Positions 12,730 through 45,914 of a stretch of DNA of 59,576 nucleotides are shown piece by piece (position 1 is the first letter of the stretch; every line of letters begins with the position of its first letter). Origin of the DNA: a virus; the IMG/VR virus record IMGVR_UViG_3300045988_178550, positions 1-59,576 of that record. One strand, given 5' to 3'. A program made the translations under genes and the position numbers. The notes beneath the pieces were generated by a model. That model had not been told where the DNA came from and did no database searches. It saw only the letters and a list, made by a program, of their open reading frames with translations.

Positions 12730-12933
12730 TTACCCAAACAACACACGCACCTTTAAGCGTGGATAGGTGTTCCCCCCCATTCGCATTTTTTTATATGCTT
12801 CAGTTCTTTCAACAATGTAATTTTCCATGTCTGCGATATCAGCAACAACTTGAGCAATCTTATCTTGTGTTCCACCATGTACAGGGCCCATAGATAATGC
12901 TGATGTTATTTTTAGCGATTTAGCTTTTAACAT
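12730..12933 (-). CDS. DUF1492/RinA-like late regulator fragment (N-terminal half only)
   Basis: LKAKSLKITSALSMGPVHGGTQDKIAQVVADIADMENYI matches the N-terminal half of DUF1492-type sigma-like activators; the ORF stops before the expected HTH; contains a G7 run (12772-12778). Confidence 0.4.
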   Translation of the reverse strand: MLKAKSLKITSALSMGPVHGGTQDKIAQVVADIADMENYIVERTEAYKKMRMGGNTYPRLKVRVLFG

Positions 12934-13040
12934 TATGATTATCAAGGTATTTATATGCCCTTTCTAATCGTCTTATTCCAGCATTTATTTGAAGTATTGC
13001 TTGCTTTATTGCTGTTCTTTCTTCCATTTGTTTCCCACCT

Positions 13041-16974: not shown

Positions 16975-17685
16975 TTATAAAGTGTTATCAGGAGCCATCC
17001 TCGTAAATATTTTATTATAAAGGTCTTCAAACACAACAGGGAAGTACCTATATAAAGCTAATAAAATCTGGTTAGCTAAATATTGCATATCAGGATGTGC
17101 TTTAGGGTCAGTACGTAATTTAATAAAATGCCTCCATTCACGCAAATTACATGTCATAATTAATTCTGTCTTCAAGCTGGTATTTAAAACAGATCTTGCA
17201 ATTTGTGGCTTAATTCCTTTATTGATTAGTTCATTATAGGCAATTGCACAATCAATACAATTTTTTTCCCAAATATCAAATTCAGGAGTATTGTATTCAA
17301 TGTTGATAGGTTTGACAAAGCTGATTGGTTTACCTTTATAATTACAGTACCTTGTACTTTCTTGTGAGTATGATGCAATCCTATGTCGTACTAATTCATG
17401 GGATATTCCACGGTCAGTAACAATTTTAAAACTACAGGAAATGTGTTCCAAAACTGATTCATGTCCAAGCCTAATTAACATTTTAATAAAAGGTTCAGAA
17501 CTATTATCAGTGATTTTGTCCTCAGATTTGTAACAAATTCTGCCAAATTGTTCAATATAATTATTTGCTACAATACCAGATAAATGTGGGAAAATCATTG
17601 CAGAAGGTTTATCAATAATTCTAATTAAACTACTATAATCAAATTTCATTTCCATTGGGATTCCTTCCCCTTTATTTGCTACCAT
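16975..17685 (-). CDS. thyX: FAD-dependent thymidylate synthase ThyX
   Basis: ThyX signature RHRIASYSQESTRY plus HESVLEH; strong AAAGGAGG SD. Confidence 0.85.
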   Translation of the reverse strand: MVANKGEGIPMEMKFDYSSLIRIIDKPSAMIFPHLSGIVANNYIEQFGRICYKSEDKITDNSSEPFIKMLIRLGHESVLEHISCSFKIVTDRGISHELVRHRIASYSQESTRYCNYKGKPISFVKPINIEYNTPEFDIWEKNCIDCAIAYNELINKGIKPQIARSVLNTSLKTELIMTCNLREWRHFIKLRTDPKAHPDMQYLANQILLALYRYFPVVFEDLYNKIFTRMAPDNTL

Positions 17686-18286: not shown

Positions 18287-18835
18287 CTATTTCCTTATAA
18301 TCAATTGCACAACTTCATCTGCTTTATTTATTAAAGCCATTTTAGGAGGAATTGTCCTATAACTTAGAACATTTAAGTATTTTGATTGCAATTCCATCAT
18401 TTCTCCAATAATGCTATTATATTTATGAATAAATTGTGCATCTATTGTTTTGTCCCTGTTTCGCATATCATTCATAAATTGCAATTTCCTATTTAATTTT
18501 TCAAATCGCTCATTTATTTCATAAATTTCGTTGGGAGGATATTTACCATTATTTTCAGTTTTAACTTCAGCTTCAGTAATAGCAATTAATTCCAAAATAC
18601 AATAGTTTGCAATATCTAAAAGCGTATCCTTTACTGATTCATTCTGGACATTAGCTTTAAAGTTATTACGGTATAATTGTTTTAATCGAAGGAATTTATC
18701 TTGCAACCGAATCAGAATAGCATTAGGATATTCATTCCTTGTGATATTAAAGCTATCACCATAATCAGCATTTTTAGCTTTGTAAACTTCATACATTTTT
18801 TCAGTGATTTTTTTGAACAGTTCTGCATTAGCCAT
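18287..18835 (-). CDS. DUF1599 (nucleotide-modification-associated domain 1)-like protein
   Basis: N-terminal KAKNADYGDSF...ILIRLQDKFLRLKQL matches the KN.DYG...R..DK..R pattern of DUF1599. Confidence 0.45.
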   Translation of the reverse strand: MANAELFKKITEKMYEVYKAKNADYGDSFNITRNEYPNAILIRLQDKFLRLKQLYRNNFKANVQNESVKDTLLDIANYCILELIAITEAEVKTENNGKYPPNEIYEINERFEKLNRKLQFMNDMRNRDKTIDAQFIHKYNSIIGEMMELQSKYLNVLSYRTIPPKMALINKADEVVQLIIRK

Positions 18836-26486: not shown

Positions 26487-26983
26487 TTTCTTTCTCTCCT
26501 TTTTTTAAACACATCACTTAATGTTGATGGTTTTTGTTTTTGATTGTTTTGTATTTTTGATTCTTCTATAATTTCATCAACCGTTAATTTCCCTTTACCT
26601 TTTATTTTTGTAATAGGTTTTTGTTTATGTTTTACAATTTCTATAGGTTTTGCTTTTTCAAACTCCTGCCCTTTTAAATACTTTGATAAATTTTCAAGTT
26701 CTGCAGGAACAGTAGCAATAAGCATTGGCCCATCAACAAATTGTACAACAAAAATAGGAATTTTTCTATCAACAGTTGCATGATATAAAAGCTTTTCAAC
26801 ATCTAATCGTTTAAATGATACTTGATTAGATTCTGTGCTTTTTAATTGGCAAATTATATCATCATTATATCCATCTTCTTTTAATATTTCTCCTGCACCA
26901 CTTCTTGGTGTAGATTTTAGTCCAAGTTTTTCAATTACTTTTCTTTCATTTGCATACCAGAATTTTGAAGTCCTACGTTTCAC
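26468..26983 (-). CDS. PD-(D/E)xK nuclease, Hjc-like Holliday junction resolvase-like
   Basis: NERKVIEKLGL..TPRSGAG...DDIICQLKST layout resembles archaeal-type resolvases. Confidence 0.45.
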   Translation of the reverse strand: MKRRTSKFWYANERKVIEKLGLKSTPRSGAGEILKEDGYNDDIICQLKSTESNQVSFKRLDVEKLLYHATVDRKIPIFVVQFVDGPMLIATVPAELENLSKYLKGQEFEKAKPIEIVKHKQKPITKIKGKGKLTVDEIIEESKIQNNQKQKPSTLSDVFKKRRERKWMKRN

Positions 26984-27524
26984 GATTCAAAATTGCTCCT
27001 TGTTTAAGTGGATATAATGAAATACAAATTGCATCAGCCATATCATCATTGCCTTCAACATCAAAATCAAATTCATTTTTAATAAATTCAATTGTTTCTA
27101 ACTTTTTATTTGACGTTTTATGTTTTGATGTTCCAACAACTTTTGACTTCCAGCTCCTTGTATCAACAGAATAAACAGGAATGTCAAAAGTAAAAGCTAT
27201 ATCAACAATAGAAGCAATTAGAGCACCAGTTGCTGATATATAACTTTTTGAAATAAATCCTTGTGAAAATGTTCTAATTTTCTCACAAATTATAATTTTA
27301 GGATGATAATTTAAAATCAAACTTTTTACAACTTTTTTCACAGCATTACGTTTTTCTGTTTTTGTTTTCATTTTTTTAAAATCTATACTATCAGCATATA
27401 ATAATTTCCCATTTTCCGTTACCGCAATACCTGTTCTTGTATAACTTTCATCAATTCCAATTATAGGATATTGCAATGCATTTTTAATATATTCTAATTC
27501 TTCTTTATTTTTAATTTTAGCCAT
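26973..27524 (-). CDS. RuvC-like crossover junction endonuclease
   Basis: IIGIDESYTRTGIAV N-terminal catalytic Asp/Glu and C-terminal DDMADAICISL. Confidence 0.65.
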   Translation of the reverse strand: MAKIKNKEELEYIKNALQYPIIGIDESYTRTGIAVTENGKLLYADSIDFKKMKTKTEKRNAVKKVVKSLILNYHPKIIICEKIRTFSQGFISKSYISATGALIASIVDIAFTFDIPVYSVDTRSWKSKVVGTSKHKTSNKKLETIEFIKNEFDFDVEGNDDMADAICISLYPLKQGAILNRET

Positions 27525-27967: not shown

Positions 27968-28750
27968 TTATAATTTTTCTTTCCTAATTCCAAAACATGT
28001 ATCTGACATTGGACAATCCTGTGCCCTTTTGCATGTTAAACTTCCACATTTGCGTTTCACCAGTTTTCCCTCTGATAAAAGTTTGTCCTTATATGTGGAT
28101 ATTTTATATAACCTTTCCAAATAGGGCCTTACAACATTAAAGTCATAATCATAGGCCAATATTTTTATCTCCTGTGTATTTTTGTCTTCACATAAAACGA
28201 ATCCTTGAGGTATACAAGTAAAATGCATATATAATTGTAATTGTTTTGTCCCTTTTGGATGAGTATCTTTTAAATGTTTAAATGCAAAAGTATTCATTGA
28301 CTTAATTTCACAAACATAAAACTTACCATTAATTTTAACAATTGCATCAGGAGTCATATATAAATCCAATGATTTTGAATAGCCCCTATCTTCAATTGCT
28401 ACAGCAATTCCTGCATTCTTAAACATCCTCTGCCATTTTTCATGAATTGCTTCACCTTCACGAAATATTCTTGCTAAGCTTACCGACATTTCTTCCTTTT
28501 CAGCCTTATTCCTTTTGTATACTAAACTAAGGACCTGTTCCCTATAACAAAAATTATTTTCACTATCAATGATTGCTGAAGCATGTAAACCTTTTCTGTC
28601 TTCATCCTCTTTTGACTTAACAAAAAATAATGAATTTAATTTATTTTCAAGCATTAAAGATAATGTAGATGATGGTTCAACTTTAATCCTGCTCCTTTTT
28701 ACTGCATCTGCAATCGCTGCACTTTTATTCATCATCTTCATCCTCCTCAA
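27968..28750 (-). CDS. Cas4/RecB-family PD-(D/E)xK exonuclease
   Basis: YVCEIKS core, one N-terminal Cys and a C-terminal CGSLTCKRAQDCPMSDTC cluster (4-Cys Fe-S layout). Confidence 0.65.
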   Translation of the reverse strand: MRRMKMMNKSAAIADAVKRSRIKVEPSSTLSLMLENKLNSLFFVKSKEDEDRKGLHASAIIDSENNFCYREQVLSLVYKRNKAEKEEMSVSLARIFREGEAIHEKWQRMFKNAGIAVAIEDRGYSKSLDLYMTPDAIVKINGKFYVCEIKSMNTFAFKHLKDTHPKGTKQLQLYMHFTCIPQGFVLCEDKNTQEIKILAYDYDFNVVRPYLERLYKISTYKDKLLSEGKLVKRKCGSLTCKRAQDCPMSDTCFGIRKEKL

Positions 28751-29666
28751 CTTCTGCTCTTAGCCTTTTTAGCTCCTGATTCCTTTGCTTCATAATTTCT
28801 TTTCTAATTTGTGGAACATCATCAACAGGGACAAATCCCCTATCAAAAACAATTGCCAATGTACATTCCCCTAAAGGATTGCAAACTTTACTTTTTATAA
28901 CTTTTACCTTCATAATCATACCAATAATTTCTTTTGCTGCTGAGTTCGCAGGATTCTTATTCGGTACTTCAATCCAACTCATTCTATTCACTTGCAACCT
29001 AATTGAAGCAAAATGTTTTAATGCCCTACCACCAGGTGTATGAGTTTGAGGACCAAATAATCCTGCCTTCATTTCATCTCTCAATTGATTGATAAAAATT
29101 ACTGTTGTTCCAGATTGCTCACATAATGTTACAAGTTTTGGAAGTTTTGCAGCTAATAATGCAGCAATTCTGCCACGTTGGCCTTCCTTCTCCATGTCAT
29201 CTTCTTCGAATTCTTTCCTCGTTATCATTGAAGGAACAGAATCTATAACAACCAATGGAACATTTGCTTTTGATACTTCTTGGATTGTTTCCATGCATTG
29301 TTCTCCATATTCACATCTACGAATAAACAACTGCCCCTTTTTATTTCCAAATATTTTAGCCCTTTTAGCATCAAATGTCCCTTCAATAGGAATATCAACA
29401 GCAACTTCATGTTGAGCAAGTAAATGATATGCCAATGTAGTTTTTCCTGCGGATTCAGGCCCAAACAATTCAATAAACCTGCCATAGGGAATTCCACCAC
29501 CAAGTATATTGTCTAAATCTTCTAATCCTGTAGACCATCTATCAACAACAAAAGTTGACTTTTCAGAATCCAATGAAAAAATGCTTCCAACACCATATTC
29601 CTTTTCAAATGCTTTTAATGTTGCTACTAATTTCTTTTTATCGATAGCTTTAGCCATCATTAACAC
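28725..29666 (-). CDS. RecA-family recombinase
   Basis: GGIPYGRFIELFGPESAGKTTLA Walker A, VVIDSV Walker B, TTVIFINQLR. Confidence 0.8.
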   Translation of the reverse strand: MLMMAKAIDKKKLVATLKAFEKEYGVGSIFSLDSEKSTFVVDRWSTGLEDLDNILGGGIPYGRFIELFGPESAGKTTLAYHLLAQHEVAVDIPIEGTFDAKRAKIFGNKKGQLFIRRCEYGEQCMETIQEVSKANVPLVVIDSVPSMITRKEFEEDDMEKEGQRGRIAALLAAKLPKLVTLCEQSGTTVIFINQLRDEMKAGLFGPQTHTPGGRALKHFASIRLQVNRMSWIEVPNKNPANSAAKEIIGMIMKVKVIKSKVCNPLGECTLAIVFDRGFVPVDDVPQIRKEIMKQRNQELKRLRAEVEEDEDDE

Positions 29667-32366
29667 CTACCTTACTTGAATTTCCCTATGGTATATTTTT
29701 CTATTCTCAATTATTACTTGTTTCTTCCTTACATTTTCATTAAATTCTAATGCACCTGCATCAATCAATGCCTTAACAACCCTAGCATTACAAGTCCTTT
29801 TTTCATTTTTATCTTCAAAATCAGGTTTATCAAGGTATGGCCCATTTTTAGCAATTGCTTCCGCTGCCTTTTCACCAACACCTTTAATTGTTGTTAGCCC
29901 CCTTGATATGCATTTACCACCAAACATTTCAACTGCACCATAATTTGCTGTCCCATTAACATGCGGTGGAAGTATTACAATTCCTGCTTTTGATGCCTCT
30001 GTTTCATATACTGCTAATTTTTGTTCATCAGATTCATTTTGTAATGTTATCAACCAAAATTCAAATGGATAATGCACTTTGTACCACATTTGTTGAAAAC
30101 TTAATAAACAATATCCAACTGCATGACCTTTGTTAAATAAATAACCATTTAACATACTTTCAAATAAATCACTATATTCTTTCTTTGAATATTCTTTGTT
30201 TACTTTTCTTGCATGTTTTAAGAATTTTTCCCTTATTCCACCAGGCCCAAAAATAATTTGCCTTTTTTGAATGTTATCATTACTATGTAAGTCAAGTCCT
30301 TTCATTAGCATTTCTGCTTCTTCCCAATCAAGTCCACCTAATTGAGTACATATTCTCAAAATATCTTCCTGATACACGAAACATCCATACGTTTCAGGTA
30401 AGTATTTTGCTGCAATATAATCAGCATTTTCATTATTATTTTTAGCATTTGCAAATTGTTCTGGCATTCCACACCCTAATGGACCAGGCCTATTCAATGC
30501 GGATACTGCAGCAACATCAGCAAAATTTGTTGGTTTAATTAATTCAAGAATTCCTTTTGCTCCAGCTTTTTCATACTGGAATACTCCATTTGTATCACAT
30601 TCCCTAAATGCTTTTATAACTTTTTTATCAGTTAACATCTTTTCATCATATTTTGCACCTGTTAACTTTTCTAATTGTTTAATAATTGATACAGTCCTTA
30701 AGCCTAAAATATCCATTTTTAATACTTTAAGAACATGTAAATCATTTAAATCAAAACAACTTTGATAATTACTTCTAACCCTTATTAAAGCAAATTGGTC
30801 AGTTAATTTCCCACAAGTTATAGCAACTCCACCTGCATGCCTTCCCATAAAACGTATTTGACGATAAAATTTATAGAACAATGTTACTACTCCTGTTTCA
30901 TCATCAATTTGCCTTAACTTTTTATTGTTTAATAATGGCTCAAGCTCAATATCAATGCCACCCATTGCAGTAATACTTGGATATACGACTCTGATTTCTT
31001 TTTTCATAATATCCATGTATTCTTTTGGCAAATCCTCTCTGACCCTAAATAAATCATTGATTAGATTGTCTGCTTTATATAATCCATAAGTTGTTATTTG
31101 TGCTGTTCTCCCTTTATATCGATTGTGGATATAATCAATAACTTCTTGCCTACGTTCTGACTCAAAATCCATATCAATATCAGGCATTTTATGTTTACCT
31201 GGTCTTAAAAACCTTTCAAACATTGTACCTTGCTGGATAGCATCAACATCAGTAATTCCTAAAGCATAAGCAATAATGCTCCCACAAACAGATCCACGAC
31301 CATGTCCATAACCAATATCATTCTTTTTTGCAGATGCAATAATGTCCCAACAGAGAATGAAATAATCTTCAAAACCTAAATCAAAAATAATGCTTAATTC
31401 ATATTTTGCTCTTTGAATATACTCCTTGTTCCACTTACCTTTTGCTTTCAATCCTTCCTTAATAAGCCTTTTAATTAATGTTTTTGTGTCCTCACCATAA
31501 TCGACTTTCGGAATATCTTCAACAAACAAATTGTCTAAATCAACATTACATTTTTCAACAATTTCTGCCGTATTTTTTAAAAGCGGAATTGCACTCCTTT
31601 TATGCCTTTTTTCAAACCTTGCTTTTACTTCATTTTCTGATGGCATGTAACGAGATGAATAATCAGCATACATTGTACGATTGCCAATCTTATACATTAA
31701 TTGATATGCTTCATAATCTTCAGGTTTTATAAAATGACTATCAGTTGTTATAATTGGTTTATATTTATATTTATCACAAATCTTTAAAAGCACATTATCA
31801 ACTTTTAATTGAATATCATTCCCATTATCATCAACAACTTTGTATGGCATTATTTCAATATATAAATCATCACCAAATATTTGTTCTAAAAGCCTAATTC
31901 TTTTTAATGCTTTTTTATTATCATTTTCAAGAATTGCACTTGATGCTACTCCTGCTAAACATGCAGTAGAACAAATTAGCCCTTCATGATACTTTTTTAA
32001 CAATGCCATTGTAACAACTGGTTTACGATAAAAATTTTCAACATTTGCAGCTGTCATCAACCTCATTAAATTTTGATATCCAATTTTATCTTTGCAAAAT
32101 AAGCACATGTGATAATATCTTTTTTCTTTATCAAATTTCGGTTGAAAATAAATTTCACAACCTAAAATTGCTTTAATTCCAACATCCTTACAAGCTTCAT
32201 AATGAGCAACTAATCCTGATATGCTACCATGTTCAGATATTCCCAGTGAAGTTAGCCCTAATTCATTTGCATATCTTGCTGCATCCTTTTGTCTCCCAAA
32301 TCCATCAAATAAACTAAATTCTGAATGTCTATGTAAGTTTGTCCATCCATACATTATCTTCTCCAC
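29667..32366 (-). CDS. dnaE: DNA polymerase III alpha subunit (DnaE-type, PHP domain), short form
   Basis: N-terminal PHP motif LHRHSEFSLFDG...ISEHGS; palm/fingers region conserved; 899 aa. Confidence 0.85.
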   Translation of the reverse strand: MEKIMYGWTNLHRHSEFSLFDGFGRQKDAARYANELGLTSLGISEHGSISGLVAHYEACKDVGIKAILGCEIYFQPKFDKEKRYYHMCLFCKDKIGYQNLMRLMTAANVENFYRKPVVTMALLKKYHEGLICSTACLAGVASSAILENDNKKALKRIRLLEQIFGDDLYIEIMPYKVVDDNGNDIQLKVDNVLLKICDKYKYKPIITTDSHFIKPEDYEAYQLMYKIGNRTMYADYSSRYMPSENEVKARFEKRHKRSAIPLLKNTAEIVEKCNVDLDNLFVEDIPKVDYGEDTKTLIKRLIKEGLKAKGKWNKEYIQRAKYELSIIFDLGFEDYFILCWDIIASAKKNDIGYGHGRGSVCGSIIAYALGITDVDAIQQGTMFERFLRPGKHKMPDIDMDFESERRQEVIDYIHNRYKGRTAQITTYGLYKADNLINDLFRVREDLPKEYMDIMKKEIRVVYPSITAMGGIDIELEPLLNNKKLRQIDDETGVVTLFYKFYRQIRFMGRHAGGVAITCGKLTDQFALIRVRSNYQSCFDLNDLHVLKVLKMDILGLRTVSIIKQLEKLTGAKYDEKMLTDKKVIKAFRECDTNGVFQYEKAGAKGILELIKPTNFADVAAVSALNRPGPLGCGMPEQFANAKNNNENADYIAAKYLPETYGCFVYQEDILRICTQLGGLDWEEAEMLMKGLDLHSNDNIQKRQIIFGPGGIREKFLKHARKVNKEYSKKEYSDLFESMLNGYLFNKGHAVGYCLLSFQQMWYKVHYPFEFWLITLQNESDEQKLAVYETEASKAGIVILPPHVNGTANYGAVEMFGGKCISRGLTTIKGVGEKAAEAIAKNGPYLDKPDFEDKNEKRTCNARVVKALIDAGALEFNENVRKKQVIIENRKIYHREIQVR

Positions 32367-33307
32367 CTTTGCGTAAATTTTTCAACAAATTGTGGACATT
32401 GCAGCATATCCTTTTGACCTGCCTTGTATAAAATTTCATTTGCAATAATGTTCATATGATTACTTGTACGATACTTATTATCTTTACAATGTTGTTTAAA
32501 CATTTCACTATTTGCAAATAAATCAAATCTTCCCTTTTTAGTAGCATCAACAAATGCTTTATAAATTTTTGCTTGTTTCTTCCATTCTTTCAAATTATTA
32601 CAATTGTATGTTAATACTTCTTCAGAATTCTTCATCATTTCAAAAATTTCAAAATTTTCTTGATAAACATGAAGGCTTCCAACTTGATGAACATAAGTAC
32701 CAACATTAACACCTAATGAATTTGCAATAACTTCTTGAATGTTTGTAAAATTATAAATATCATAAGGCATTCCAAGTATTGCATCATTAGACCTCATTGT
32801 AACAATCAAATGTAGTTGATTATCACGAAGCATAAATTGTAAAGCAATTGTGCAAGGAGTATCATGACCAGAATAGTTTAACAAATCACATTCATGGCTA
32901 TAAATTGTTAAAACTGCTTGCCTTGTATCTTTATCTTTTCTTATTTTATCAACAATTGTTTGAAGTCCTTTAGCTATACGATATCCATAAGCTCCATGCA
33001 TTGTCATTCCATCATCACTAAATAAACCCATTTTTGAATTAAATGCCGTAAAATACTTTAACTTATCTTCTTTTAAAGCAAATAATAAAGATTCAATTGT
33101 TGCGTATACAATACTAAATTTTCTTTCAGGTAAATATGCCAATCTACTTCTTGGATTAGTTAAAACAATTTGAACTGCGGGAAGTTCTTTTGTAACTTTC
33201 CCTCTTGGATTCACATTAAATGCATCAACGAATTGTGTATTTAATTCTTTATATAATTCAGCAACACTTGAAACAATGATACTCATTTCATTCACCTCAA
33301 TTTTCAA
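32354..33307 (-). CDS. ThyA-fold pyrimidine dNMP hydroxymethylase/methylase, predicted dCMP-specific
   Basis: Catalytic Cys in HDTPCTIALQF. MRSNDAILGMPYDIYNF aligns to TS QRSCDVFLGLPFNIASY, with Asp replacing the uracil-specifying Asn, as in T4 gp42. Confidence 0.65.
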   Translation of the reverse strand: MKIEVNEMSIIVSSVAELYKELNTQFVDAFNVNPRGKVTKELPAVQIVLTNPRSRLAYLPERKFSIVYATIESLLFALKEDKLKYFTAFNSKMGLFSDDGMTMHGAYGYRIAKGLQTIVDKIRKDKDTRQAVLTIYSHECDLLNYSGHDTPCTIALQFMLRDNQLHLIVTMRSNDAILGMPYDIYNFTNIQEVIANSLGVNVGTYVHQVGSLHVYQENFEIFEMMKNSEEVLTYNCNNLKEWKKQAKIYKAFVDATKKGRFDLFANSEMFKQHCKDNKYRTSNHMNIIANEILYKAGQKDMLQCPQFVEKFTQRWRR

Positions 33308-41778: not shown

Positions 41779-42198
41779 CTAGGATATCGCAATTAATAAA
41801 ACAGTACCAAGTCCAATATACAATAAAGTTTTTTCAGCTTTTAATTGTTTAATCTTCTTTTTGTATTCTTTGGACTCCTGTTCTAAAGTCTGATTGCAAC
41901 TCTCTAAGTATTTGATTTTGTTGTCGTAAGATGTCTTCAACATCGTTTGCTGTTTTTCCAATGTTATTACTGACTGATTGGCTTTCTGTAAGTTGTTGTT
42001 TAATTCCGTCCGTTGTTTTTTCAACGTCAGAATTTTGTTTATCGATTGTTCGTTTAGGGATATCGCTTGCGCTATTTGTTGTTCTTGCATTTCGAATTTC
42101 TTCGCTGGAACTAAATAATAATCCTGTGCATAAGCCTGCTGACATAAACCCAATGGTAAACCAAACAACAAAAGCATGAAAAATATTTTTCTTTTCAT
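41779..42198 (-). CDS. signal-peptide, coiled-coil, C-terminal-TM protein (spanin-like architecture)
   Basis: MKRKIFFMLLLFGLPLGLCQQAYA-Q signal (AxA), Q/K-rich coil, LLYIGLGTVLLIAIS anchor; stop overlaps the next SD. Confidence 0.5.
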   Translation of the reverse strand: MKRKIFFMLLLFGLPLGLCQQAYAQDYYLVPAKKFEMQEQQIAQAISLNEQSINKILTLKKQRTELNNNLQKANQSVITLEKQQTMLKTSYDNKIKYLESCNQTLEQESKEYKKKIKQLKAEKTLLYIGLGTVLLIAIS

Positions 42199-42331: not shown

Positions 42332-42874
42332 TCAATTATTTTGTTTCCAGATTGCCAATCCACGAATTACATCGCCGCCGGGCTGATCTTTTCTACCTGT
42401 TCCGGGATCGTCTAAAAGAAGTAAATCCCATCTTAAATCCGGATCATTACCATAAAGACCATAACCATCAATATTAGCGATTTCTGCATGAGTCATAACA
42501 TGCTCCGAATCTATTGGAATTTCTAGAACAGTTGCTATAAAACAAATTACCTCAGCTAACCGTTCGACTTGAATTGGTGTTGGTGGATAACCATTCCAAT
42601 TAATTCTTTCAGGATATTTGTAAACAGTCGCCCCATAAGCACAACATAAAGCGATTCCAATAGCATTGCTGTTTCGATGCCATGTATGCTCTTTGTAGTC
42701 TGTAAGTTCACCATTAATACGAACAGTTCCATCACTTTCAATACAAATATGATAATGTTCTTTTTCAACACTATTCATTTTGTATAATCCACCTGTATGA
42801 TGACAATAGATTCGATTAATACCATTATTTTTAGCCCTTTCGGCAAGTGCAATGATTTCATTTATTGTTGTCAT
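42332..42874 (-). CDS. N-acetylmuramoyl-L-alanine amidase (Amidase_2/PGRP) endolysin, catalytic domain only
   Basis: IYCHHTGG, HTWHRNSNAIGIAL, MTHAEI motifs; start at ATG 42874 (AGGAGGA SD). Confidence 0.75.
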   Translation of the reverse strand: MTTINEIIALAERAKNNGINRIYCHHTGGLYKMNSVEKEHYHICIESDGTVRINGELTDYKEHTWHRNSNAIGIALCCAYGATVYKYPERINWNGYPPTPIQVERLAEVICFIATVLEIPIDSEHVMTHAEIANIDGYGLYGNDPDLRWDLLLLDDPGTGRKDQPGGDVIRGLAIWKQNN

Positions 42875-43187
42875 TAGTATTGTCCTCCTTTTCTTCAAGA
42901 ATATCTGCTATGCCATTTTGATTTTTATCAATAAATAATTTTGCTAAAAATGTAATGGCATAAACAGTCGACCCACTTACAAAAAAGGTCAAGAATGAAA
43001 TGATTATTGGCAAGTCTGCCTCGTTTGTTACTTTTAGGTTGTGTATCCAACCATAAACAAACATTGCAGTAAAGCCGAGATACACCATTATAAGGTAGAA
43101 AGCTATATACTTAATGTATTTATTCCCTATTAATTGTGGTGTATTTTCAACTAATTTTTTAAACCAATTAAGTATCTTGTCTTTCAT
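42858..43187 (-). CDS. holin-like membrane protein
   Basis: 109 aa with 2-3 TM segments and a charged C-terminus, immediately upstream of the endolysin. Confidence 0.6.
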   Translation of the reverse strand: MKDKILNWFKKLVENTPQLIGNKYIKYIAFYLIMVYLGFTAMFVYGWIHNLKVTNEADLPIIISFLTFFVSGSTVYAITFLAKLFIDKNQNGIADILEEKEDNTNDNNK

Positions 43188-43232: not shown

Positions 43233-43267
43233 CACCATAGGAGCTAGCTTAGAGGCTAGTATTCCTA
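43233..43267. repeat. left arm of a perfect 35-bp inverted repeat
   Basis: CACCATAGGAGCTAGCTTAGAGGCTAGTATTCCTA; the exact reverse complement is at 43952-43986. Confidence 0.95.
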
Positions 43268-43623
43268 CGACTGAAACATATTTAGTCAATATCAATGAAG
43301 ATTACACCACAGTAAACGAAACGAGAACAGTTCATATTCCATCAGGCGTTAAAGTATTAAAAGTAAGAGTCTATTCCGAAAGTGGTGCAGGTGGAGATGA
43401 TTTCTGTGCTGCATATGTTCAAAATGCCGACAATAAGAAAGTTTGGGTAATTGCTGAAAACTATGGTTCTTGTGATGAAACTAAATATGTCGGCGTAACA
43501 GGCGGGAAAGATTATAAATTAAATTTATATGCTGGCACTGAATATGATACAATGGCAGCATTAATACGAATTTCATATTCACAGTCGATTAATAATACAA
43601 CTCCCCGTGTAACAGATTATTAG
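43233..43623 (+). other. start-less (silent) paralog cassette D, inverted relative to all other genes
   Basis: Encodes TIGASLEASIPTTETYLVN...ISYSQSINNTTPRVTDY but lacks the MALTDNPM head, SD and ATG; the upstream part of track ORF 43114.. is antisense to holin. Confidence 0.8.
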
Positions 43624-44033
43624 TAATCTGTAACTTCTACTGCGTGTGAATTGATAGTAGGCGACCATTCGAGTTTAAAATTCAACTTAGTGTAATCAGT
43701 ATTAACATCTAAATTGCCTATAGTATAATCAATCCAATATTTATTATTGTTAGCATTATACAACAAGTATTCTTCACCTTCTCCATAATTATATTCAGTC
43801 CAATTAGAATACAATTTATAGGATTTATTGGGTGTTACACCTACATACGTAATCAAACTTAAATATCCAGATTGATTAAATGAAGCCCTTAATACTGTTA
43901 TTCCTGCGGGAACTGTAAAGGTACTGCCATGTGCTAAAGTAACTTCCCCACTAGGAATACTAGCCTCTAAGCTAGCTCCTATGGTGACATTGCCTGTCAC
44001 GATAATTGACATTGGATTATCAGTTAAAGCCAT
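43620..44033 (-). CDS. cassette-family protein C (expressed copy at the invertible locus)
   Basis: MALTDNPMSIIVTGNVTIGASLEASIP head, divergent body, VTDY end; stop overlaps the stop of cassette D. Confidence 0.7.
   Translation of the reverse strand: MALTDNPMSIIVTGNVTIGASLEASIPSGEVTLAHGSTFTVPAGITVLRASFNQSGYLSLITYVGVTPNKSYKLYSNWTEYNYGEGEEYLLYNANNNKYWIDYTIGNLDVNTDYTKLNFKLEWSPTINSHAVEVTDY
43952..43986. repeat. right arm of the perfect 35-bp inverted repeat
   Basis: TAGGAATACTAGCCTCTAAGCTAGCTCCTATGGTG on the plus strand. Confidence 0.95.
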
Positions 44034-44054
44034 AATATACGGCAGATTTTGAGT

Positions 44055-44474
44055 TTAGTAATCGGTTACTTTAGGCGTTTGATTGTTAATTGATTGTGAA
44101 TAACTAATAGTTACACTTCCTGACTCTGTGCCAGTTTCGCTATCAGTTGATAACTTTAATGTATAACTTTTATTAGGAGTAACTCCTACATACCAAATAT
44201 CATAGGCGGATTCGTAATCCCATAAAGATAACCAATATTTTTTGCCATTTACTGAATATACATCTAAAGCTACTTCGCCTTCGTGTTCATGGTATACATC
44301 ACCCTCTACTTTTAATACTTTTACACCCGCAGGCACTGTAATAGTAACCGTTGTATTCACATCCATAGTACTCAACAATCTTGTTTCAGTAGTCGGTACA
44401 CTTGCTTCTAATGTTGCCCCAACTGTTACATTGCCTGTAACCACTAAACTCATAGGATTGTCTGTCAAAGCCAT
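44055..44474 (-). CDS. cassette-family protein B
   Basis: Start at ATG 44474 (GGAGGAAAAAG SD): MALTDNPMSLVVTGNVTVGATLEASVP...ISYSQSINNQTPKVTDY. Confidence 0.7.
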   Translation of the reverse strand: MALTDNPMSLVVTGNVTVGATLEASVPTTETRLLSTMDVNTTVTITVPAGVKVLKVEGDVYHEHEGEVALDVYSVNGKKYWLSLWDYESAYDIWYVGVTPNKSYTLKLSTDSETGTESGSVTISYSQSINNQTPKVTDY

Positions 44475-44509
44475 CTTTTTCCTCCGATTTCTCACAGAGG
44501 AATATTACA

Positions 44510-44989
44510 TTAATAATCAGTTACGTTAGGTATTTTTTGATTAATTGATTGAGAATAAGAAATCTTTAAATACCCTCCACCCAAATTATATTCTGCGCCT
44601 ACGTATAACGATAATTTATAAGTTTTGTTTGGTGTTACTCCGACATACCATTGATCATAGAAATTAAAACCCTCTGATCTATAACGCCACTCTTTTTGAT
44701 TAGAAAGGTTTTTTATTTCTACAGTAACGTAATCATCATAACCCTCGCTAGATTCTGCATGACTGGAAATATATAATACAGTAACTCCATCAGGAATAGT
44801 TATTGATACTTCCTCATACAAGATGTCATTTGCTTCAATATTTTTGTTGATCAAGAAAGTTTCTTCTGTAGGCACAATAACTTCTAATTCTGCACTAACC
44901 GTAATATTCCCTGTGACTGTAATATTCATAGGATTATCAGTTAGTGCGTGTAATTGTAATAGTAATCTCGGAAGACGGCTGACAGACAA
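44510..44989 (-). CDS. cassette-family protein A; start ambiguous (TTG 44989, or ATG 45033 after a +1 change in the G tract)
   Basis: ..LHALTDNPMNITVTGNITVSAELEVIVP...ISYSQSINQKIPNVTDY; the family ATG position is CAC here. Confidence 0.6.
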   Translation of the reverse strand: MSVSRLPRLLLQLHALTDNPMNITVTGNITVSAELEVIVPTEETFLINKNIEANDILYEEVSITIPDGVTVLYISSHAESSEGYDDYVTVEIKNLSNQKEWRYRSEGFNFYDQWYVGVTPNKTYKLSLYVGAEYNLGGGYLKISYSQSINQKIPNVTDY

Positions 44990-45004
44990 TTCTTTATCTG
45001 CCTG

Positions 45005-45014
45005 CCCCCCCCCC
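45005..45014. repeat. C10/G10 homopolymer
   Basis: Ten consecutive C on the plus strand, counted directly; longest G/C run seen in this AT-rich genome. Confidence 0.95.
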
Positions 45015-45034
45015 TAATTAATTTATTAAACATT

Positions 45035-45310
45035 TTATTCGTCCTCCTTATTTACATCAATTTTTTCTAAAAGCTCTCCATCTTTGTTATAACCAGTGAT
45101 TATAAGATTTTGACCTTTTTTAACTAAAATACTATAAGGTGAATTTGCTTTTACACTAAAAGAATATTCACCACTTGCAACAAAATCAAGATTCGCATAA
45201 CTGTCTAATGTGTTTGATAATTTAGCACATTTTTCATTTAGTTCTTTTTGCATATCTTCATATTCCGATTTTGTTTTCCCGCCTAATAATTTTATCAACC
45301 AATTAAACAT
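45035..45310 (-). CDS. hypothetical protein
   Basis: 91 aa; N-terminus MFNWLIKLLGGK resembles the MFNKLIRGGG leader of cassette A. Confidence 0.5.
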   Translation of the reverse strand: MFNWLIKLLGGKTKSEYEDMQKELNEKCAKLSNTLDSYANLDFVASGEYSFSVKANSPYSILVKKGQNLIITGYNKDGELLEKIDVNKEDE

Positions 45311-45914
45311 CTTCGTCCTCCTTTTCTAATACAGCTCCAATTTCAGCATCGCCATTTATTGCTAATGTATTTGCGCTTGCAGTTTGATAGCTTCCTGACA
45401 ATGTAAATGTCTTAAAGGTGTATCCACTATTCGGCGTACACAAATTGCTTGCAGTTTTGCCATGCTGAACAGTAAAGGTTGACGTATATGCAACACCATC
45501 AACTGTAACAGTAATCGTTCCACCTGTAGGCTGATTAATCGTATAAGTATAGGTTTTCAAGGTAGCGGCTGTTGCACTAATAGTGATATTATCTGTCAAT
45601 GTTCCACTTGTACTGCTTAATGTGCCTGCATTATAACCTGTACTTGCTGATATACTTGCCGTATAAGTTGACCCTGCTTCTGCTGTAAATGTTGATGTAT
45701 ATGAATTGCCATTGCAAATTACTGTTATTGTTTGATTTGCTGATTGTACGATTGTGACCGTTACTGTTACTTCGGACGTGTAACATAATCTTGCTACGCC
45801 ATTTACTCCTATATACATTTTTTTGACTTTTCTTGCCTTGCCGTCTACTCCAATGTATATATTCTTTGCTTTTCTTGCTTTACCATCTACACCTATATAA
45901 ATGCTTTTTGCCAT
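45303..45914 (-). CDS. fibre-associated protein with a triple N-terminal repeat and Thr-rich beta repeats
   Basis: KSIYIGVDGKARKAK / NIYIGVDGKARKVK / KMYIGVNGVARL, then YTSTFT-type repeats. Confidence 0.55.
   Translation of the reverse strand: MAKSIYIGVDGKARKAKNIYIGVDGKARKVKKMYIGVNGVARLCYTSEVTVTVTIVQSANQTITVICNGNSYTSTFTAEAGSTYTASISASTGYNAGTLSSTSGTLTDNITISATAATLKTYTYTINQPTGGTITVTVDGVAYTSTFTVQHGKTASNLCTPNSGYTFKTFTLSGSYQTASANTLAINGDAEIGAVLEKEDEDV

Follow-up and report, generated by a model that had tools for sequence, protein, structure and literature searches.

The DNA analysed here is a 59,576-nucleotide viral stretch, positions 1 to 59,576 of the IMG/VR record IMGVR_UViG_3300045988_178550; this whole stretch is referred to as the window. 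On its minus strand, at 45005-45014, it carries a run of ten guanines (G10) in a short leader that precedes cassette A, a member of a small paralogous gene family. Among related loci the length of this tract was found to vary through all three reading phases, and in out-of-frame copies the cassette frame behind it stays open. We consider it likely that the tract is a contingency locus, situated in a translated leader that gives cassette A its only good start.

The arrangement was read directly from the sequence. On the minus strand, the Shine-Dalgarno (SD) motif AAGGAGG (45049-45043) is followed by ACGAATAAA, the start codon ATG (45033-45031), the codons TTT AAT AAA TTA ATT, a single A, the G10 tract and CAGGCAG. 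The tract begins at the second position of codon 7. The SD motif lies within the final codons of an upstream gene of 91 amino acids (aa), whose stop codon TAA (45037-45035) ends 1 nucleotide (nt) ahead of the leader ATG. It is separated from this ATG by 9 nt, the modal spacing of the genome (mode 8-11 nt, from 35 genes that have a 5-nt core). As assembled, the leader encodes MFNKLIRGGGRQIKNCLSAVFRDYYYNYTH and its frame ends after 30 codons at TAA 44943-44941, which also closes the G7 phase. Translation with other tract lengths revealed that G8 and G11 join the leader to the frame of cassette A. The resulting products of 173 and 174 aa, MFNKLIRGG(G)QADKELSVSRLPRLLLQLHALTDNPMNITVTGN...VTDY, run to the stop at 44512-44510. 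With G9 and G12, products of 12-13 aa are obtained. Thus, lengths of 3n+2 join the two frames, and G7, G9, G10 and G12 are out of frame.

The body of cassette A (44989-44510, minus strand) is an intact open reading frame (ORF) down to this TAA. Between the tract and the position where the family normally starts lies a leader extension (45004-44948), which reads QADKELSVSRLPRLLLQLH in the cassette frame. It ends in CAC (44950-44948), where the paralogues have ATG, and cassette A is a paralogue without a start codon of its own. The sole other start-like codon in its frame is TTG (44989-44987). This codon has no usable SD, as the G run ends 15 nt and an AGG 11 nt upstream of it. The SD-driven ATG, the tract with its in-frame and out-of-frame lengths and the start-less cassette had been described in the initial annotation, and sequence and translation bore them out. 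Its view that so long a G/C run is improbable by chance was equally sound: based on 100 dinucleotide-preserving shuffles, the expected number of G10 runs per window is 0.01. Only two G/C runs of at least 6 nt are present in the window, the G10 tract and a C7 at 12772-12778. The latter, a G7 on the minus strand, falls towards the 3' end of a 71-aa ORF (12730-12945), within 1.5 kb of DNA where all ORFs are small.

Translation of the leader had initially been argued from its resemblance to the start of the upstream 91-aa gene. At the DNA level this echo is real, with an 81% match over 21 nt (45025-45045 against 45302-45322) that covers the ATG, its upstream flank and the first codons, but it is a weak argument for translation. 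The better argument comes from in-frame database proteins and from the SD and ATG themselves, which do not differ in 47 of the 49 related loci (AAGGAGGACGAATAAA). When proteins were searched with the G11 product, 1284 relatives were obtained, all of them metagenomic. The top matches are mostly 169-176 aa long and open with MFNKLIRGGQADKELSVSRLPRLLLQLH, as expected for the G8 in-frame leader. The majority of the full-length database proteins begin with the exact predicted leader MFNKLIRGGQADKEL, mostly in the RGGQ form that corresponds to G8 (MFNKLIRGGQ...). Short DNA repeats (43152-43178 against 45287-45313, and the 21-nt pair above) tie together three gene starts, those of a holin-like gene (MKDKILNWFKKL), the 91-aa gene (MFNWLIKLL) and the leader (MFNKLI). 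A start module appears to have been duplicated among the three.

Tract length was then compared between relatives, as the initial annotation had proposed. Related-locus DNA was fetched with a pattern that fixed both flanks and left the tract free, which yielded 15 loci from IMG/VR and 34 from metagenomes, all 49 from the human gut. G9 was the commonest allele (18 loci), followed by G8 (14 loci), G10 (4 loci, one of them ATC-G10 with C in place of the preceding A), G7 (3 loci) and G11 (3 loci). Interrupted tracts were also detected, namely AGAG9, AGAG7 and AG4AG2 in 2 loci each and AG4AG6 in 1 locus. In 41 loci, tracts of G7-G11 are set between identical 14-nt flanks, and all three reading phases are present. 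A G12 allele was deduced from one protein. The window brings the total to 50 loci, of which 20 have leader and cassette in the same frame and 30 do not. Wherever the downstream DNA of an out-of-frame locus is complete, the full cassette ORF of 143-181 codons is retained. As a control, A/T runs of 6-7 nt in the 40-47 kb region were followed through up to 46 loci each, and these never vary. Homologues that lack a homopolymer and start elsewhere did not turn up among the related loci. The comparison of relatives, with its polymorphic tract and intact ORFs, thus supports the contingency reading at the level of assemblies rather than of individual reads.

The database proteins mirror these alleles. 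P0020 carries RGGGQ and derives from the interrupted 11-nt in-frame tract AGAG9. Further in-frame variants (RGRQ, RGEQ, RRGQ and KGGQ) come from point-interrupted tracts and are in this sense locked. Proteins P0023 and P0031-P0033 had been called from the TTG in out-of-frame relatives, and the cassette of the window would be called likewise.

A gapped comparison of the flanks identified closely matched pairs with unlike tracts; an earlier ungapped comparison had revealed none. L045 (G9) and L053 (G11) have 0 differences in 1.3-1.4 kb of flanking DNA, and the same is true for L069 (G8) and L070 (G7). L033 (G8) is one base away from L024 (G9) and one base away from L038 (G10). Because pairs with identical flanks differ in tract length, the tract evolves faster than its surroundings.

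Such tracts are not restricted to one leader. Three further leaders, unrelated in sequence to the type described here, have a G or C run at the same junction, and two of them were found in both phases. The type II leader, MENKD[IV]IAVNSVGD.ENQCVAGG, has G6 in a Phascolarctobacterium faecium prophage (NCBI GCA_037257145.1), G7 in six IMG/VR loci and an in-frame G8 in L096 and L097. The TTG codon is absent from this leader. The type III leader, MVNINKLTLVT, occurs with C8 and C10 out of frame and with C9 in frame, the latter as P0124 with 41 member sequences. The type IV leader, VSKNKYKNLV, has G8 in three loci, all out of frame, and is found in the same genomes as type III. In these genomes (L079, L080 and L081) there are two switchable slots, one with the poly-C type III leader and one with the poly-G type IV leader (GTG-VSKNKYKNLV-G8). 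The 30 nt immediately ahead of the family start are conserved from one leader type to another. There, it is mainly in the cassette frame that changes are synonymous, which suggests, on small numbers, that the leader extension is translated.

We also surveyed G/C runs of at least 7 nt in 522,595 bases of related loci. All of them are leader tracts, with the exception of one in a DNA methyltransferase gene. Hence, G/C runs are not randomly scattered in these phages but are placed at the 5' ends of particular genes. Since they are otherwise absent from the 522 kb of related DNA, they seem to be kept where they are useful and not tolerated at random. The exception is located in L060 (ERZ791573 NODE_39, minus strand, ~4073), where a G9 stands at codon 14 of a 231-aa DPPY DNA methyltransferase. 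The assembled sequence is out of frame, and a G10 tract would restore the frame. The gene may be a phase-variable phage methyltransferase; the window has no homologue of it.

Cassette A occupies the first of three slots. Cassette B in slot 2 (44474-44055, minus strand) starts from an ATG of its own, with a strong SD, GGAGG (44485-44481), at a spacing of 6 nt. Cassette C in slot 3 (44033-43620, minus strand) likewise has its own ATG, and an SD is not visible in front of it. The body of a silent partner, cassette D, lies tail to tail with C on the opposite strand (43234-43623, plus strand), and in other genomes this body is joined to the leader of cassette A (P0055). The family has a variable centre between a conserved N-terminus, ALTDNPMxxxVTGNxT, and a conserved C-terminus, YSQSINxxxPxVTDY. 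Neither cassettes A-D nor the 91-aa protein could be assigned to a family by Pfam and PHROG searches, and a profile search of Protein Data Bank sequences with the cassette returned noise only. A tblastn search of the cassette against INPHARED (50,697 phage records) and a profile search of genome contigs with the cassette alignment were without a match. A search for near-identical DNA with the 42.8-47.7 kb region against cultured or deposited phages recovered one 50-nt match only.

An AlphaFold model built from 38 sequences predicts an eight-stranded beta-sandwich, in which residues 55-165 score above 90 in the predicted local distance difference test (pLDDT) and the N-terminal 50 residues are disordered. 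Foldseek returned weak matches only, at a template modelling (TM) score of ~0.4. The best of them, amid generic jelly rolls, were tail-fibre tips, including the receptor-binding end of lambda gpJ. A set of 15 distinct A-type sequences was compared. In their central 80 codons (codons 45 to 125 after the tract), 13-14 changes are nonsynonymous and 0 synonymous, and synonymous change is found at the ends. Diversifying selection on a putative binding surface may underlie this pattern. Based on its position at the close of the tail-fibre cluster, both here and in a lambda-like siphovirus prophage, the beta-sandwich model, the purely nonsynonymous centre and the three diversification mechanisms acting on the family, the cassette protein is probably an exchangeable tail-tip or receptor-binding subunit, with the conserved N-terminus docking on the fibre. 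Its size and gene position presumably recall the small receptor-binding proteins of lactococcal P335-type phages.

These observations can be combined into a simple mechanism. Slipped-strand mispairing during replication of the phage DNA would add or remove guanines. With G8 or G11, the leader with its SD and ATG would be in frame and the 173- or 174-aa protein would be made. With G7 or G10, and with G9 or G12, translation would halt after 30 or 12 codons, respectively, and the cassette would be off or nearly off. The window would then represent an off allele. We infer from the alleles that slippage is the cause, that the change is reversible within one population, and that the protein is lost in the off state. 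If the protein is receptor-binding, the switch would produce subpopulations of differing surface specificity and thereby a bet-hedging of host range.

Several points weigh against this interpretation. The evidence on tract length is a comparison between assemblies, that is, between consensus sequences. The in-frame fraction of 20/50 is close to the neutral expectation of one third, and the consensus gives no sign that the on state is favoured; a value of 40% would mean that the cassette is dispensable in many settings, as expected of a contingency gene. For type II leaders, all six IMG/VR loci have G7, so variation is not universal. No G/C homopolymer of comparable length is present elsewhere in these genomes as a control for a G-specific bias of sequencing or assembly. 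The G7 region at 12772-12778 was intended as a control for G errors, but two scans of the collections gave no relatives of it, the four matches being unrelated. For the function of the cassette, the evidence consists of gene position and of weak fold matches (TM score ~0.4). Finally, the paralogues B and C work without a leader, so a product initiated at TTG 44989 could be functional and the off state would be leaky.

The last point leads to an alternative in which protein is made from every allele. RNA polymerase slippage, ribosomal frameshifting or re-initiation would then produce it, and the tract would tune its amount or isoform. The positions of the leader stops are in favour of this, as the G9-phase leader would end at a TAA 4 nt before the in-frame TTG 44989 and the G7/G10-phase leader 11 nt before an in-frame ATG (44929-44927). 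Furthermore, G9 is the commonest allele, and B and C function without any leader. Against this stands the variability of the tract, since programmed slippery sites are fixed in length, whereas the tract here ranges from 7 to 11. The TTG lacks an SD and is missing from the type II leader. The out-of-frame products are peptides of 12-30 aa with no conserved continuation. In addition, slippage is less well documented on G runs than on A/T runs. Overall, we regard recoding as a rather improbable account of the locus. In part, though, it may be compatible with a contingency locus: because potential re-initiation sites lie near the leader stops and B and C are free of leaders, the off state may be leaky and the switch may be graded rather than binary.

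It was also considered that cassette A is dispensable and is being lost, in which case the frameshifts would be ordinary inactivation at a fragile site. The in-frame share of 40%, which does not differ from a neutral third, would fit such decay, as would two loci (L059 and L065) that are in frame and nevertheless have premature stops further down. However, in out-of-frame loci with complete DNA not one second lesion was detected over ~490 nt. The tract, the SD and the ATG are identical in almost all 49 loci, three other, unrelated leaders bring their own tract to the same junction, and elsewhere in 522 kb of related DNA such G/C runs are missing. Decay is therefore very unlikely. Equally implausible is a technical artefact, in which one fixed in-frame length would be disguised by homopolymer miscalls of sequencing or assembly: long G runs are error-prone on several platforms and a control run of equal length is lacking in these consensus assemblies, but five lengths recur in 49 independent assemblies (mostly Illumina-style SPAdes or MEGAHIT contigs), matching contigs reproduce the same length, consensus errors at G8-G11 should be rare and not affect ~60% of assemblies, point-interrupted tracts (AGAG9, AG4AG2 and others) in both phases are substitutions rather than length miscalls, and the neighbouring A/T runs are invariant.

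Besides the tract, two further processes diversify the cassettes. The first is exchange. From genome to genome, at least six different bodies follow one and the same leader (43620-45033; P0021, P0027, P0033, P0055, P0060, P0065, P0105 and P0112), and there are chimeras whose crossovers fall in the conserved coding parts for the N- or C-terminus. The combination of one leader with many bodies and of chimeras points to recombination between slots. A diversity-generating retroelement was rejected as the source of the hypervariable positions, because the changes are mainly C/T and G/A transitions and not adenine-specific. No near-identical direct repeat of a cassette segment that could serve as template repeat was found; no exhaustive search for a reverse transcriptase was made.

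The second is inversion. A perfect inverted repeat of 35 nt (left arm 43233-43267, right arm 43952-43986) bounds a 754-bp invertible segment (43233-43986) that carries the bodies of C and D. The right arm encodes TIGASLEASIP in the N-terminal region of cassette C. In 18 relatives, a 30-nt core of the repeat is again present as two inverted copies. L069 and L070 carry the 754-bp segment in opposite orientations, and inverted matches of 372 bp exist between L033 or L024 and L038. Across genomes, a given body type can be found in one orientation or the other. No resolvase-like motif was detected in any window ORF of at least 100 aa. A Pfam scan of 30 window ORFs identified no recombinase besides RecA and RuvC, the window being ~4-6 kb shorter than related contigs. 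Since the repeats are perfect coding sequence of 35 nt and the phage encodes RecA, homologous recombination is an alternative to an invertase. A promoter that matches the sigma-70 consensus at 12/12 positions (TTGACA-17-TATAAT, 43230-43202, minus strand) adjoins the left repeat, shortly before the start of the holin gene at 43187. The leader (44980-44993) and cassette B (44454-44467) also share a 14-nt inverted match, which was dropped because, by our own estimate, ~0.5 such matches per region are expected by chance.

The local genes, with the exception of cassette D, are on the minus strand, in the order baseplate, tail fibres, 203-aa gene, 91-aa gene and cassettes, followed by a holin-like gene and an amidase (42332-43187). 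Pfam and PHROG searches identified a Mu gp48-like baseplate protein (50596-49691) and two tail-fibre-like proteins (49694-48828 and 48816-47635). The module is headed by a 571-aa tail-fibre protein (47642-45927), which matches PHROG tail-fibre families at E = 6.5e-19. The 203-aa gene (45914-45303) is situated between this fibre gene and the 91-aa gene (45310-45035, MFNWLIKLLGGK...), whose start region is paralogous to that of the leader. In relatives of myovirus and of siphovirus type alike, the 91-aa gene stands beside cassettes. The related contigs have lengths of 62-66 kb. Among other genes, the window encodes a DNA polymerase III alpha-like protein. It also encodes ThyX, a second thymidylate-synthase-like protein, a DUF1599 'nucleotide modification' domain, RecA and a RuvC-like resolvase; the genes concerned lie at 16975-17685, 18287-18835, 32354-33307, 28725-29666 and 26973-27524. 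The first three of these functions may point to modified DNA bases in the phage. No tRNA genes were found in the window.

The likely host is Phascolarctobacterium, a Negativicute. This assignment is based on the endolysin, for which an uncultured Phascolarctobacterium supplies the closest genomic match (41%), and on the type II module, which lies inside an integrated P. faecium prophage flanked by bacterial genes. The relatives of the terminase are phages of Bacillota, at less than 50% identity. A lipobox protein (41779-42198) adjoins the lysis genes and fits a diderm host. The P. faecium locus (L095, JAYCWM010000018.1 of GCA_037257145.1) is a lambda-like siphovirus prophage that has a block in common with the myovirus of the window. 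This block comprises a 228-aa gene, the 91-aa gene and the cassettes, and the prophage also has fibre proteins with an Mtd_N domain. The shared block resembles a portable host-recognition module.

A wider interpretation can be offered, tentatively and with more doubt than confidence, in which these elements form a portable host-range module of three layers. Beta-sandwich tip cassettes that lack a start or a leader of their own would be placed behind at least four unrelated, interchangeable leaders, each with its own run, next to a constitutive second slot and an inverting third slot, and bodies would be exchanged between them. The three tract phases may correspond to three outputs, namely the full fusion protein, a protein re-initiated at TTG and a shortened form begun at the internal ATG. 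The module would be common to two Phascolarctobacterium phages, a myovirus of virulent appearance and a temperate siphovirus. Together with the 5' G run of the methyltransferase in the same phage group, this suggests a phage 'phasome'.

The locus resembles several known systems. Bacterial contingency loci have repeats in the 5' coding or leader region, as in the pentamers of Neisseria opa genes and in the poly-G and poly-C genes of Campylobacter and Haemophilus. Like these, the locus here has its repeat just past the start codon, which results in very short off products, and it shares with them the paralogous surface-protein family and the locking of phases by point interruptions. In contrast to these (reviewed in PMC11868660), the carrier is viral, a myovirus with its own DNA polymerase III alpha-like, RecA and RuvC-like proteins. 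The closest parallel is found in Campylobacter phages (Fletchervirus), in which, as cited in PMC10579305 and PMC12823448, hypermutable poly-G tracts cause phase-variable expression of receptor-binding proteins (Sorensen et al. 2021, Cell Rep 35:109214). Both cases have a G homopolymer within a gene of the host-recognition region, lengths that shift the frame and make subpopulations, and a low-GC genome. By the citing accounts, switching and phenotype were experimentally shown in the Campylobacter phages, whereas here they are deduced from the genomes. No sequence relationship between the two loci was detected by tblastn, PHROG or Pfam searches. Unlike the Campylobacter phages, the phage described here probably infects a Negativicute, a dedicated leader donates the start codon to a start-less paralogue, and the gene family is also varied by inversion and cassette exchange.

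Homopolymer contingency loci are also described for the coliphages T2 and T4 (Gomez, Barrick and Waters, bioRxiv 10.1101/2025.10.21.683753). Again the homopolymer is carried by a phage and a reversible frameshift serves as bet-hedging. The T2/T4 loci are A runs of ~6-9 in ordinary genes (such as agt and rIIA) and concern the evasion of host defence; here, in contrast, a G/C run is set in a genome that avoids such runs, at a structural or host-recognition gene. The C/D slot, for its part, is comparable to the G segment of Mu (Gin) and the C segment of P1 (Cin), as it swaps C-terminal bodies behind a constant N-terminus and both orientations exist in nature. This likeness concerns C/D and not the G tract, and unlike Mu and P1, no serine invertase is among the window ORFs scanned. 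The locus thus appears to work like known phage contingency loci without being homologous to them.

To our knowledge, experimental proof of homopolymer-driven phase variation in phage genes is limited to Campylobacter phages and, as of very recently, T-even phages. The locus described here would extend the phenomenon to widespread uncultured phages of the human gut, in which it recurs across dozens of independent metagenomes, and every phase of the tract is found in natural populations. Gene-calling programs misread such genes, for example with TTG starts or truncated products, and host-range predictions from a single consensus genome can mislead. In summary, the locus offers a concrete and testable case of bet-hedging by gut phages, which would be joined with inversion and cassette exchange in one gene family.

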